Shown here piece by piece: positions 453 through 63,191 of a DNA stretch of 64,000 nt; positions within the stretch are counted from its first letter, which is position 1; each line of letters begins with the position of its first letter. Source of the DNA: Octopus vulgaris. Taxonomy: Eukaryota. Under the pieces are notes generated by a model, which was given only the letters and a program-made list of their open reading frames with translations, was not told the DNA's origin and made no database searches. The position numbers were made by a program, and so were the translations under genes. Location of the stretch: the NCBI GenBank assembly GCA_951406725.2, contig OX597827.1:74462001-74526000 (forward strand), given 5' to 3'.

Positions 453-602
453 CTGAAACTGATGCTCCAAAATTGATACTCTTGATGAATTATCAGTTTC
501 CTTTATTCTAGAGAATTCTTCTGGAATGTTACTGACATCGATGTCGTAATCTCCGGTGAGAATGTTCTCGACTAAAACATCATATATAAACTCCAACTGT
601 AT
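453..602 (-). CDS. RPTP exon: end of D1 and probable D1-D2 linker (IQLEFIYDVLVE...ILEHQFQ)
   Basis: Pyrimidine tract + TAG acceptor (603-605), GTAAGC donor, 150 nt phase 0-0. No stop codon, so the gene continues left of the window. Confidence 0.9.
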
Positions 603-3600
603 CTAAGAAAAAGAAAAAGAGACGGATCAGTTTAAAATTGCACGAACACTGTTGTCAGTAAACAATGGATTTTGATATAGATATCATTCATTATGTTTCG
701 TAGTCACAAATTTGGTAAAGAGAAGAGAACTCCTTTGTTTCATGCAAATATTCTTTTGAAGGATGAAGTGATTAGGTGAGATCAATACAATTATTAGTTT
801 GAACTGATATAAATCGTATTTAGACGTTACAAATTGAGGTTTGAATGAGAATGTAAGAAACGGTGTGGATTTGACGTTTTCCAACAATATATGTATCTGA
901 AGATAGAGAAGGTCTTAAAAGTATTAAATAATGCCAGTATTTATATACTACATAACGCGAATATCTTGTTAGAATACCGTGTTACTGTAGTATTTGCTCT
1001 GAAAGGTCATTCCATGCAGACACACGGTGCTAAAAGCACAGACATATCGTTAGTAATCGTGATCTAGTAGCATGTGTGGCGGGTCCTTTTTCAGCAGCAG
1101 GCGCATGGCCATTACATGCCAGTCAATACATCAACGTTTGATATTAATACTGCTTCTGATTTAATGGTTTCTTTTTTCAAGTGTCAGCCGGCTAACTGAA
1201 ATCTTAGTGACTTAGCAGTTACTATTTTTCGACATATATTGTTGGTAATGAGATTTGGCTGGTACACACTAAGCAGATCTCCTACTACTGAAATTATGTG
1301 ATCTAGAATTTCCACGACTTATTCTTATCCATTGTCCTCTGCTAGCATTTCCACTACTTATCCTTGTCAATTGCGCTGTGCTTTTAGCTCTGTACATATA
1401 TTACAGGCTCTCTCTGAAGGTGAATATCGCAGTAATGCGTTGTTCTAACAATACATCCTCCTTATTTAGAATATAAAGATTATCATTCGGTATAAATACT
1501 GCTTCCGTGGCTAGAAGTTATTTATTAACACACACGCGCGCTCTTATTCTCTAGAGAGGATTATATGCAAAACAACAACCTTCAACAAACACTCAGTGTT
1601 CATGCATGACTTAATATAAAAACTAAAGTTGAAATATTTTACCGAGGCGCAATGTCTTTCCAATCCCATGGTCACCAGGCACATAATTTGTTGAGGAATT
1701 TAGTAGAATTCAAAAACATGTGTAAGTAGCTTGCTTACCAACTACATAGTGTCGGTTTCAGTCCCACTGCGTTGCATCTTCGGCAAGTGTCTTTTACTAT
1801 ACCTTCGTACCCAATGCCTTGTGAGTGGATTTGGTAGATGGAAACTTAAAGAACTGTCATATATGTGTGTGTGTGTGTGTGTGTGTGTGTGTGTGTGTGT
1901 GTGTGCGCGCGCGTGTGTGTACGAATGAGAACCCAGGTTCGAAATTTCACCAAGACACCTGATGAATGTTGCAGGGTATATCAGCCGAAACGTTGCGTTA
2001 ACAACAAAGAAGATGACGACAAATATCCGTCAAATGTAAATAATGTACAAAATTCCTCATCTCTTAAATACAGAACTGAAAATTATCGTATTTTATGAGA
2101 GATAAATTTGTTTCAGGGATTATATGTGTCTTGATGGTAACTTTAGAGTAAACGTAATGGTATTCCACAGACACATGCACTCTTAATATAAATCCCAGTG
2201 GGTCACAACGCCACAAGACTGGAATTTTGATTGGAAAGCACAAACTAGTGAAAAAGAGAGGGAGAAAGAGAAAGAGAGAAATGTGAGGGTTAGAAAAAAG
2301 ATTAAATCTCAACACCAAACAGGTACTTTTGAAATAAGAGTGCAGAGGCAATTACGAATCCTGCAAGCCATTTTCCCTGGTATTGGAAATTTCTGCCAGT
2401 TCACCGCCTCTCAAGAAATTGCCAAATTATAGAAGATATCAGCAATGACCATTGCCGCTGAAAGAAAAGATGAAAGCAAGCCCATAAAAGGGAGAGTCCC
2501 TGAGTGTTACAAGCTATTAGACTAAGTATTTTTTCTTATTTACGTTGTCATTAACTCACCCTTTTCTGGACCATATGCATCCTCTCCTCCCGAAGCTTCG
2601 TAACACATGCCAATACATCAATAGCTTCACCACTCAACATTTCATTGAGAAGAATGTCAATGCAAATGTAAGTTCCGGTACGACCGACACCAGCACTGAA
2701 AGAAGGGTCAAGGACAATAAAATGTCTATGATTGCTTCCAACAATTTAATGAATAACAAAATAAATACATGGATTAGGCTTAGAGAACATAAACCAGTTA
2801 TTTTGGTTTACTCAAGAGTAGGGAAATAGAAGAGTTGAATGTTAGTAGAAATGGGATCCTAAATTTGCAATAATGTACCTAGCACTATATTTCGTACCAT
2901 CAGCCAAAACAGTTTTAAATAAAAATTTTCTATAGGGGTGAAAACAATCATTATCAACATCACAGATTCTTCTGACTTATGACAATGTTAGTTAAAGTTT
3001 CTTGACTCACTACATCACATATACCTACATTATTATGACCTAGGAGGCAACCCTTGGTAATTTCTCTGCGATTGTTTCTATTTCTTAAACTATCTCAGTT
3101 TGTAGATTTGACCTCTTTGTTGACGTGATGTTATGAGTTAAAATGTTTTCTTTGATTAAACGTAAGTTGATTCTGAAAACTTTATAAATGTTATTGTTAA
3201 ACAAAAGGTGGCATACGTAGTAACAGTTTTCAGAACACCATTTGGTTCAGTTTAGGCAAAATATTCGTGGAATCTTACACCTTAGGAATATAATTTTACT
3301 ACAAAGCACAGTGAATAATAACAAAACATTTCAAACTTTTAAGATGATGTTATTAAAACACAGACAACTAAACAACCGCACATTCATAAGCATTATTTTT
3401 ATTTCTCGCTTCTCAAATGAGTAGTATGAAATATAAACAACGCTACGTGGGTATATTTACAGACAGCTTCAAATTCATCTCTGCCTGTATTGATCCTCTT
3501 TCAGAAATTGGGAAAAGAGAAGCAACATATCATTCTATACAGAGTATAAATTATGCTTATTATAAATATAATTTTATCTATATAAATATATAAAATATAA

Positions 3601-61900: not shown

Positions 61901-63191
61901 TATATATATATATATATATATATATATATATATATATATATATATATATATATAATACAAAATGGGACAAGAACGCAAAACATCCAGACAGTCAGGTGAT
62001 ACAAAAAAGGGAGAACAAAAAATTCATATAGACGATACAAAGAAAACAAGAATGGGTCATTCGGATTACTTATTTTATATATATCTATATGTATAAATAA
62101 ATATGTATATGTATGAATATATACATATATATATATATATATGTGTGTGTGCGTGTGTGTGTGTGTGTGTGTGTGTGTGTGCGTGTGTGTGTGTACCAAA
62201 TCCACCAACAAGGCTTTGGTCAGCCCGACGCTATAATAGAAGACATATGCACAACGTGACATGCAGTGGGATTGAAACCGGATCCATATAGTTGGAAAGC
62301 AAGCTTCTTACCAAACTATCATTCATTAATAACTCTATCACCACTGAACACCATTTGTGATATAGGGAGACGACGTATGCAAAAGATCCTGAAGGAAGTC
62401 GTTTGTCTTCTCGTGATTCTCTATAATTATCTATATTTGATATTTCATCGAATTTTATTTTACGCGAATACTTTCATCTCATTCTCTGTGGTTACATTCC
62501 ATTGATCCACGTTGAAATACAATGAGGAATCAAGTATATACTCATCTCTATCTAGTGTCTGTAATGCTAAAAGAAATAACAATATCTAGCATATTAAGTC
62601 ATCTATACTATGTCATAAAACTCTTATAATAGCAATTTATGGCTAACATGGTTTTTATTATTTCAGAATGTCTCAGCGGTAAATTTGGTCGTAATTGCAC
62701 AAAGTCCTGTCATTGTTCCGAAACATGTAACCACACCAATGGATTATGTCCAGGAGTGTGTGATGCAGGATACACCGGGTACAACTGCCAAGAAGGTTAT
62801 TTCCAATACTTTTTATTCCAATATTTTAAAATTCTCTACATTTGATTTAGTGTTTCTTAGCATAAATCAACTTTCTTATTTATCATCAAAAACTACTTCA
62901 ATATTAACTCATAAGTTATGTTTTAAGATAAGATAATAAAAAAGCGTATCATTGATGTCTCACATATATTTGTAGAAGAGAACTCTTACAGCCATAACTT
63001 TTATTGTGTGGAGCTAATAATATCTAATCTATTGTGTTTTGTATTAATATTTTCAGAATGTGAAGCTGGTAGATTTGGTAAGAATTGTGGAAGGACATGT
63101 CATTGTATCGACGACGAAAACTGCGACAGAATAACTGGAAAATGCTCAGACGGATGTTCTGCTGGATATAGAGGATCCTCTTGTCAACAAA
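43707..63191 (+). CDS. Partial extracellular region: F-type lectin (fucolectin/F5-8C-like) domain + MEGF10/SCARF-type EGF repeats; exons 43707-43964, 57233-57415, 58346-58489, 62667-62795, 63057-63191
   Basis: All introns are phase-1 [16 protein letters not shown]...AVDGN...SCTHT...NPFWQVTF...RIYN / RDRL...C...C...YVRI...LTLCEVEV gives the F-type lectin fold hallmarks. It is followed by CxxGxxGxxCxxxCxC...C...TGxC..GC..GY.G..C repeats. Confidence 0.92.
44495..45270 (+). mobile_element. Penelope-like remnant: inverted terminal fragment, (TTA)n, GIY-YIG C-terminus and terminal repeat
   Basis: [22 protein letters not shown]...[12 protein letters not shown]; 44499-44550 is the reverse complement of parts of 45120-45225. 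Confidence 0.7.
45170..45213 (+). ncRNA. Minimal type-I hammerhead-ribozyme-like motif
   Basis: ACAC-CTGATGA-A-GGCTG-loop-CAGCC-GAAA-TG-TT-GCGT: canonical core and a perfect 5-bp stem II. Confidence 0.6.
45470..46490 (+). mobile_element. Penelope-like element 3' end: GIY-YIG endonuclease ORF + C-rich spacer + terminal repeat
   Basis: [14 protein letters not shown]...RCHTCPHL...[26 protein letters not shown]...RREQQLIF; hammerhead-like motif at 46363-46398; ends in (TA)n. Confidence 0.9.
46647..46776. repeat. Perfect inverted repeat, 62-bp arms with a 6-nt spacer
   Basis: 46647-46708 is the exact reverse complement of 46715-46776. Confidence 0.95.
49165..50860 (-). mobile_element. Helitron remnant (PIF1-like helicase part)
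   Basis: [78 protein letters not shown]; hairpin-like 3' end near 49170-49195. Confidence 0.92.
51092..51222. repeat. (TTA)n microsatellite
   Basis: Directly visible. Confidence 0.97.
51225..52212. mobile_element. Two divergent Penelope-like GIY-YIG 3' ends (51225-51482 -, about 51790-52212 +) flanking an inverted repeat (51596-51786)
   Basis: Both encode GQTGM..., QQI, LS...CGQK, FYKL, FIDxFKPxLNG on opposite strands. Confidence 0.7.
52818..52965. repeat. (CA)n(TA)n compound microsatellite
   Basis: Directly visible. Confidence 0.99.
53019..54460. mobile_element. Non-autonomous TIR element with about 93 bp imperfect inverted ends
   Basis: 53019-53112 is the imperfect reverse complement of 54368-54460 (ATGTATGGAT.AAAATAGTTTGAT...GAGTTTCAAGCACG...AGTCGTCAGCCATTTTG.ATTTGAATGACAA). 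Confidence 0.75.
54499..55430 (-). mobile_element. Second Helitron remnant (internally deleted PIF1-like helicase)
   Basis: [76 protein letters not shown]; degenerate hairpin + CAAG end near 54500-54530. Confidence 0.92.
55670..56379 (-). mobile_element. Decayed mariner fragment
   Basis: TA-CGAGGGTGG terminus at about 56381; peptides [10 protein letters not shown] and [11 protein letters not shown] (KVMxxVFWD-like). Confidence 0.7.
56653..56730. repeat. (TATC)n microsatellite
   Basis: Directly visible. Confidence 0.98.
56799..57097 (+). mobile_element. tRNA-derived SINE
   Basis: GTGGCTTAGTGGTTAGGG A box and GAGTTCAATTCCC B box, followed by a body shared with 27622-27860. Confidence 0.8.
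57233..57415 (+). CDS. F-type lectin domain exon, C-terminal half
   Basis: ttctag acceptor, GTAAGT donor, 183 nt: (R)[15 protein letters not shown]...[15 protein letters not shown]...LTLCEVEVL. Confidence 0.93.
58346..58489 (+). CDS. EGF-like exon 1
   Basis: ttgcag acceptor, GTTAGA donor, 144 nt: [47 protein letters not shown]. Confidence 0.92.
60357..61690 (-). mobile_element. CR1-like LINE 3' portion, in the EGF exon 1-2 intron
   Basis: [65 protein letters not shown]; abuts (TA)n at its 3' end. Confidence 0.9.
62667..62795 (+). CDS. EGF-like exon 2
   Basis: tttcag acceptor, GT donor, 129 nt: [42 protein letters not shown]. Confidence 0.93.
63057..63191 (+). CDS. EGF-like exon 3
   Basis: tttcag acceptor, GTATGA donor, 135 nt: [44 protein letters not shown]. 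Confidence 0.93.

Follow-up and report, generated by a model that had tools for sequence, protein, structure and literature searches.

A 64,000-nucleotide stretch of the Octopus vulgaris genome (assembly GCA_951406725.2, contig OX597827.1, positions 74,462,001 to 74,526,000 of the forward strand), referred to here as the window, carries parts of receptor-type protein tyrosine phosphatase (RPTP) genes on the two sides of an assembly gap. This gap, at 37881-37980, is the only run of N in the window. It is flanked on the left by 12 minus-strand exons (27454 to 194), which encode transmembrane (TM) and protein tyrosine phosphatase (PTP) segments, and on the right by five plus-strand exons (43707-63191), which encode an F-type lectin domain and epidermal growth factor (EGF) repeats. 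Each of the 17 exons is free of stops and bounded by canonical splice sites, and all of the exon junctions are phase-compatible. The coordinates of the features are collected in Table 1.

The minus-strand gene (gene B) had been recognized from the sequence alone as a TM and PTP gene, and this description is borne out by 11 exons running from 27454 to 453, all bounded by AG/GT, which join into 397 codons without a stop and cover the TM segment, two juxtamembrane segments and the whole of the first PTP domain (D1). The left limit of 453 missed a further exon at 245-194, the twelfth, which shows that the gene extends beyond position 1. The Pfam Y_phosphatase family matches all three of the PTP exons scanned, and a search with one of the juxtamembrane exons returned three proteins among five candidates. 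The gene corresponds to the public O. vulgaris models P0155/P0156 (CAI9733310/CAI9733309; P numbers denote the protein records compared here), which are unchanged from the window over 374 of 374 residues counted from the second Met of the TM segment, and which have no ectodomain. The P0155 model reaches the second PTP domain (D2). The C-terminus of P0155/P0156, to the left of the window, has a D2 tail that is unlike those of its siblings and looks frame-shifted, while P0025 skips this region and keeps a normal tail.

The plus-strand gene (gene A) consists, within the window, of five exons bounded by AG/GT, each running from phase 1 to phase 1, with the F-type lectin domain divided between two exons (F1 and F2), followed by three EGF repeats (E1 to E3), which agrees with the earlier description of an F-lectin and EGF ectodomain to the right of the gap. 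The F1 exon matches PF22633 above the Pfam cut-off, within the galactose-binding/F5-F8 families, and matches the solved F-type lectins FBP32, lectinolysin and eel agglutinin at E values of 3e-11 to 1e-6; fucolectin-related chains also match. Two of the three EGF exons have weak Pfam EGF matches below the cut-off and the other has none, and the identity of these exons to EGF repeats in named relatives reaches 100%. From 34 candidates, a search with F1 yielded 19 proteins, each of them named as Octopus. The lectin domain is split by an intron of 13.3 kb.

The public isoforms P0001/P0020 (O. vulgaris CAI9733312/CAI9733311) carry F1, F2, E1 and E2 at 100% identity, skip E3, and continue past position 64000 into more EGF repeats, a TM segment and a KNRY-type D1, with D2 in P0020. 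As CAI9733309/310 represent gene B and CAI9733311/312 represent gene A, the two halves already stand in the public models as two genes lying side by side. In P0001/P0020, the opening two coding exons fall to the left of the gap, which shows that these isoforms were built on the window sequence or on an identical one. As real exons, these two were rejected, given that they encode no hydrophobic leader and that the first of them lies on a gene B splice acceptor.

The 5' exons of both genes are missing at the gap. The TM exon of gene B is separated from the gap by 10,426 bases, and the gap is separated from the gene A exon at 43707 by 5,726 bases. In the first of these intervals, no ectodomain exon had been seen in the sequence-only reading, and a tblastn search with 10 full-length relatives as queries, lenient to an E value of 10, likewise recovered none between 27455 and the gap, with only short matches at E > 0.5, the filler-like exon apart. 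The same search found no N-terminal exons between the gap and 43707. The full-length relatives have a signal peptide or hydrophobic leader and approximately 250 residues ahead of the lectin, all of which gene A lacks in the window; a hydrophobic N-terminus is present in seven of the 10 relatives checked, and not in the window, P0020, P0010 or P0027. As the two genes are cut short on their 5' sides at the same place, the gap either hides tens of kilobases or joins contigs that are not neighbors. A self-comparison of the window found no overlap of the contig ends, and the matches across the gap are limited to short, dispersed repeats of 60-175 bases with 75-87% identity.

As judged from the sequences, the window most probably contains two 5'-truncated paralogues, one of type A and one of type B. 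They would come from an octopus receptor cluster of recent duplication, with the layout F-lectin-EGF-TM-PTP(D1)-PTP(D2). The minus strand would then hold the 3' part of a type-B paralogue (TM, juxtamembrane, D1 and the start of D2), and the plus strand the middle of a type-A paralogue, with its lectin and three EGF repeats. The two tails are distinct, given that the type-A tail of P0001/P0020 is identical to gene B at 61 of 106 residues over the TM and juxtamembrane segments and at 106 of 136 in the first half of D1, with the identity falling to 27 of 59 for the WPD exon and rising to 91 of 96 over the final two exons. Trees were built from a choice of 32 records, with a row kept where its alignment covered 60% of the segment in question (18 rows for TM to mid-D1 and 19 for lectin and E1), and the deep branches of both are not resolved, with long-branch warnings. 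In the former, gene B groups with P0010 and P0026 (99/95), with the O. bimaculoides record P0140 next (92/84, unstarred), and in the latter, gene A groups with P0020, P0027 and P0023 (95/98).

The ectodomain of gene A points to a type-A tail. The nearest independent copy, P0027, is identical at 114 of 119 residues over F1 and F2, 47 of 47 in E1 and 44 of 44 in E3, and ends in a type-A TM segment, and the same ectodomain type is paired with a type-A TM segment in the O. sinensis record P0006. The other loci that combine a type-B TM segment with a lectin (P0003/P0026 and P0010) both carry the KEHSC form of E1, and ahead of the type-B TM segment, P0010 and P0140 have a GDNCQ-type EGF repeat in place of the E3 of the window. 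The accessions CAI9733294 to 313, all on one sequence of 84.7 Mb, include at least three A-like ectodomains and at least three B-like tails. Since a diploid can contribute no more than two alleles of a locus, A and B would each occupy at least two loci, with copies that may be true duplicates or uncollapsed haplotypes. In P0009, P0015 and members of the cluster, the models contain a lectin, EGF repeats and a TM segment, and no PTP domain, and may represent either short-tailed receptors or truncated models.

A number of observations weigh against the assignment of the halves to two paralogues. All of the protein records compared are gene models, and P0001/P0020 in particular spans the gap with its two filler-like 5' exons, and could also bridge a second gap past 64000. 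Ectodomains are shuffled among the subtypes, with the F1 of the type-B record P0026 being 91% identical to that of the window, so the pairing of ectodomain and tail is not strict; two type-B models differ in their lectin class, and the test of the pairing rests on two type-B loci. In addition, the TM segment of P0006 and the beginning half of its D1 are of type A, while the remaining half is of type B and identical to the last three D1 exons of the window (3808-453) at 59 of 59 and 96 of 96 residues, so chimeric models or genes do occur among these receptors.

The sequence-only reading had offered two interpretations, of which the pair of clustered paralogues stands. The other, which supposes a wrong orientation or an inversion of the right contig, with the F-lectin and EGF exons joined by splicing to the TM exon that starts at 27454 in a single receptor gene, now appears improbable. 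It had drawn on the observation that the ectodomain exons end in phase 1 and the TM exon starts in phase 1, which is correct, and the exon phases are compatible with a single gene. Phase 1-1 is the usual phase of EGF exons, and as all five ectodomain exons are of this kind, phase compatibility does not discriminate between one gene and two, and was set aside as evidence for one. A single gene would also account for the missing ectodomain of gene B over the 10,426 bases up to the gap, and is favored by the movement of ectodomains between subtypes and by the demonstrable unreliability of the public plus-strand model at its 5' end. Against this, when each half was searched against the databases, as had been suggested, they matched separate, neighboring O. 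vulgaris models of two TM/PTP subtypes, and the plus-strand model continues to further EGF repeats and to a type-A TM segment, D1 and D2 of its own. The ectodomain is, moreover, 96-100% identical to that of P0027, which itself ends in type A, and the E1 type of gene A is found at neither of the two other type-B loci with a lectin. Even if the contig were flipped, no signal peptide or N-terminal exons would be gained within the 5,726 bases beside the gap.

A genuine biological truncation, in which a rearrangement of the cluster left two 5'-less remnants pointing apart (pseudogenes, or short membrane-tethered or intracellular forms), is very improbable, in that the structural variation and domain loss reported in the available text on a snail cluster (PMC12297450), the start of the P0155 model inside the TM segment, its frame-shifted-looking D2 tail, and flanks full of transposon remnants are outweighed by the intact state of the 17 exons, by the coincidence of both truncations with the run of N, and by other models of the cluster (P0008 and P0002) that start or stop in mid-exon, as broken contigs would give.

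The two paralogues would share a single-pass type I layout, as read from their sequences, with a lectin, an EGF stalk of variable length, a TM segment, a juxtamembrane region that contains tyrosines, D1 and a degenerate D2. The combination of lectin, EGF, TM and PTP occurs in one polypeptide in P0020 (the gene A model) and in P0010 and P0026 (siblings of gene B), and each of these three has two Y_phosphatase stretches in Pfam; the ectodomain of gene B itself and the TM segment of gene A lie outside the sequence of the window that could be read. In 24 records the layout is complete, and in these one to nine EGF motif matches follow the lectin. The sequence-only reading was therefore right about the architecture, and about an ectodomain unlike those of the vertebrate RPTPs, being composed of F-lectin and EGF rather than FN3, Ig, MAM or CA domains.

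The catalytic elements of the two subtypes differ at the phosphotyrosine (pTyr) loop. The type-A D1 has KNRY, the WPD loop, VHCSAGVGRTG and the Q loop, all present, while the D1 of gene B keeps the WPD loop, VHCSAGVGRTG (CX5R) and VQKRIQ (the Q loop), with KNLH as its pTyr loop. This KNLH is common to the window, P0003/P0026, P0010 and the O. bimaculoides records P0028/P0140. In the available text of the two sources consulted, the tyrosine of KNRY stacks on the substrate ring, and its absence likely explains the inactivity of PTPN14/PTPD2 on phosphopeptides (PMC7320164, PMC2638020). As this tyrosine is absent from KNLH, where the His may keep some of the stacking, the type-B D1 is predicted to be weak or altered in specificity, and is not proven to be dead. 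The binding of a ligand at the lectin/EGF ectodomain would change the clustering of the receptors and, in turn, the activity of D1, with type A as the working tyrosine phosphatase, and type B either weak or shifted in specificity. Recognition of non-self would be the likeliest setting, although an immune role for the octopus receptors is suggested by analogy only, with the snail loci discussed below. In the other type-B models P0010, P0026 and P0003, the WPD and catalytic-Cys exons are entirely missing, which may reflect an assembly gap, a prediction error or a real loss. A third subtype (P0017 and P0019) has KNQY as its pTyr loop.

An array of paired receptors in octopus, in which active type-A tails (KNRY) and weak or substrate-trapping type-B tails (KNLH) draw on a shared pool of swapped lectin/EGF ectodomains, is a tentative and, on present hints, rather unlikely extension of these findings. 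In such an array, ectodomain exons would be exchanged by gene conversion and unequal crossing-over, the signals from a single ligand would be opposed or graded, and the specificity of recognition would be diversified independently of any adaptive system. One hint is the conservation of KNLH in two species. Another is the exon after the catalytic Cys (P7), which is identical between A and B at 45 of 45 residues, and between gene B and its O. bimaculoides type-B counterpart at 42 of 45, while the TM segment, the two juxtamembrane segments (JM1 and JM2), P4 and P6 have the opposite pattern, being clearly closer to the O. bimaculoides type B. This identity hints at gene conversion, at the level of the protein and in one exon. 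A third hint is the variation of the sugar-site residues among lectin copies that are otherwise nearly the same. If the array is real, KNRY/KNLH active and inactive partners with swapped ectodomains would represent paired phosphatase receptors in an invertebrate.

The glycan-sensing role that had been proposed for this receptor is doubtful for the copy in the window, given that its sugar motif is broken. This lectin keeps the cation motif AVDGN (h2DGx), the His of the binding triad and the last Arg, and has Gln for the first triad Arg (43950-43964, plus strand), with the Asp and the vicinal Cys-Cys both absent. The Gln is found in this copy alone among its near-identical siblings, which have Arg, and the residues of the sugar site vary among these copies. 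An Ile in F1 likewise replaces an Arg of the siblings. The canonical fucose motif of the F-type lectins is His...Arg-x-Asp-x4-Arg/Lys, and deviations from it may mean either another specificity or no sugar binding, according to the available text of PMC5712786. This motif is not found in the window domain, nor in any of 40 lectin-bearing records (spacing 24-27), several of which are partial domains. The sugar motif thus fails in gene A, which would place it outside the fucose-binding F-type lectins. A jellyroll fold is suggested by sequence matches to six solved F-lectin chains, the AlphaFold model of the P0023 ectodomain being too poor for this purpose (mean pLDDT 39.6).

Most likely, the finding is an ordinary one for the most part, namely two truncated paralogues of a known receptor type, with a lectin-EGF-TM-PTP layout that is not new and has already been described in mollusks. 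In the available text on the snail Biomphalaria sudanica, a schistosome-resistance locus (SudRes1) has a cluster of receptor-like PTPs whose extracellular parts carry MEGF and galactose-binding domains, in a region that is duplicated and incompletely assembled, and the genome contains 17 such RPTP genes (PMC12297450). In B. glabrata, LG5R subgroup 1C has a galactose-binding/fucolectin signature, EGF repeats and two PTP domains, as described in the accessible part of PMC13712769. The likeness to the octopus receptors extends to the single-pass structure, galactose-binding/fucolectin domain, multiple EGF repeats, tandem PTP domains, clustered paralogues and variable EGF number, and is one of description and architecture. 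The snail loci differ in their link to a phenotype and in their antistasin neighbors, which are not seen in the octopus window, and the available portions of the snail accounts make no mention of KNLH. No Biomphalaria protein is present among the matches listed from the searches with F1 and the juxtamembrane exon, nor among the 120 records counted below. By architecture, the octopus receptors would belong to the known molluscan kind of RPTP with galactose-binding/fucolectin and MEGF domains. The literature searched, which for the most part excludes subscription papers, provided no octopus-specific account of this family. The locus would represent a badly resolved and wrongly named cluster of immune-type receptors, extending to the cephalopods a layout that the two snail studies, in their available text, tie to schistosome resistance (PMC12297450, PMC13712769).

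Related layouts are found beyond the snails. Among the best 120 of 170 records, 29 (counted by eye) carry PF22633 or PF00754 together with PF00102, these being eight from octopus, 19 from bivalves, one from an annelid and one from a nemertean, the last two also with FN3. The bivalve models come from Mytilus, Argopecten, Magallana, Crassostrea, Saccostrea, Ostrea and Mactra, with the order lectin-EGF-TM-PTP confirmed for the Mytilus record P0029 and otherwise taken from precomputed Pfam lists. Their identity to the octopus sequences is approximately 26-43% over the query region, and a profile derived from the octopus lectins matched only two non-octopus records. Separate lineage expansions in the bivalves are likely, at a depth at which the tree is not resolved.

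The vertebrate RPTPs (RPTP-alpha/epsilon, sigma/LAR, and mu/kappa/T) share the tandem D1-D2 arrangement, with RPTP-alpha (6uzt) as the best solved match at an E value of 3e-98, and differ in the ectodomain, as noted above. The database names ‘T-like’ and ‘mu-like’ reflect the PTP domain alone. The F-type lectins eel agglutinin (1k12) and MsaFBP32 (3cqo) match in sequence and have AVDGN, the triad His and the last Arg in common with the octopus copy, whereas the latter is anchored in the membrane, fused to a phosphatase, and lacks the first Arg, the Asp and the Cys-Cys pair. The MEGF10/Draper/SCARF receptors share tandem eight-Cys EGF repeats, and relatives are named ‘draper’ or ‘MEGF10’, with one match to the EGF-like chain 6u11, but these receptors have a plain tyrosine-motif tail in place of the lectin and PTP domains.

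Table 1. Coding exons, gap and repetitive features of the window, with positions counted from its first nucleotide.
Feature	Position	Strand	Remarks
Gene B, twelfth exon, start of D2 region	194..245	-	Continuation in P0155 and P0025
Gene B, D1 end and linker	453..602	-	
Gene B, PTP D1 exon, remainder of CX5R loop and first Gln of Q loop	2560..2695	-	Pfam scan
Gene B, PTP D1 exon, WPD loop and catalytic Cys (VHC)	3630..3808	-	Pfam scan
Gene B, PTP D1 exon (QYWP)	11123..11245	-	Pfam scan
Gene B, PTP D1 exon (DFWRMIW)	14545..14642	-	
Gene B, PTP D1 25-nt exon (YIACQG)	16247..16271	-	
Gene B, PTP D1 exon (DYINANF)	17371..17444	-	
Gene B, PTP D1 exon, pTyr loop KNLH, not KNRY	18366..18453	-	RPTP-alpha has KNRY at the aligned position
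Gene B, juxtamembrane exon 2, several tyrosines	19717..19856	-	100% to P0155, 91% to P0003 and P0010
Gene B, juxtamembrane exon 1	22094..22179	-	Identical in P0155
Gene B, TM exon, phase 1 to 2	27361..27454	-	30/30 residues as in P0010
First coding exon of P0001/P0020	27460..27473	+	Left of gap, on gene B splice acceptor; probably filler
Second coding exon of P0001/P0020	37463..37554	+	Left of gap; probably filler
Assembly gap	37881..37980	.	100 N; 5' exons of both genes lost here
Gene A, F-type lectin exon 1 (F1)	43707..43964	+	AVDGN cation motif, triad His, Gln for first Arg
Gene A, F-type lectin exon 2 (F2)	57233..57415	+	100% to P0001/P0020
Gene A, EGF exon 1 (E1, MERC type)	58346..58489	+	
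Gene A, EGF exon 2 (E2)	62667..62795	+	
Gene A, EGF exon 3 (E3)	63057..63191	+	Skipped in P0001/P0020; 44/44 in P0027
Mariner/Mos1-type transposase remnants	23264-23665, 36452-37033	-, +	Pfam Transposase_1, HTH_48
PIF1 helicase remnants, Helitron-like	49712-50861, 54700-55200	-, -	In the lectin-splitting intron
GIY-YIG remnant	33995-34309	+	Weak Pfam match
Retroelement-like open reading frame remnants, judged by eye	45498-46052, 30118-31239, 60360-61341	+, -, -	No Pfam match or partly scanned
Degenerate CA array, 1 kb	34475-35530		Near gap
Self-complementary (palindromic) elements, 190-370 bases	63652-63991, 51595-51786, 35856-36229, 8771-9034		Possibly like miniature inverted-repeat transposable elements

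Beyond the catalytic domains, the C-termini of P0020, P0010, P0007 and P0017 all end in Tyr-x-Asn, which recalls the Grb2-binding tail tyrosine of RPTP-alpha.

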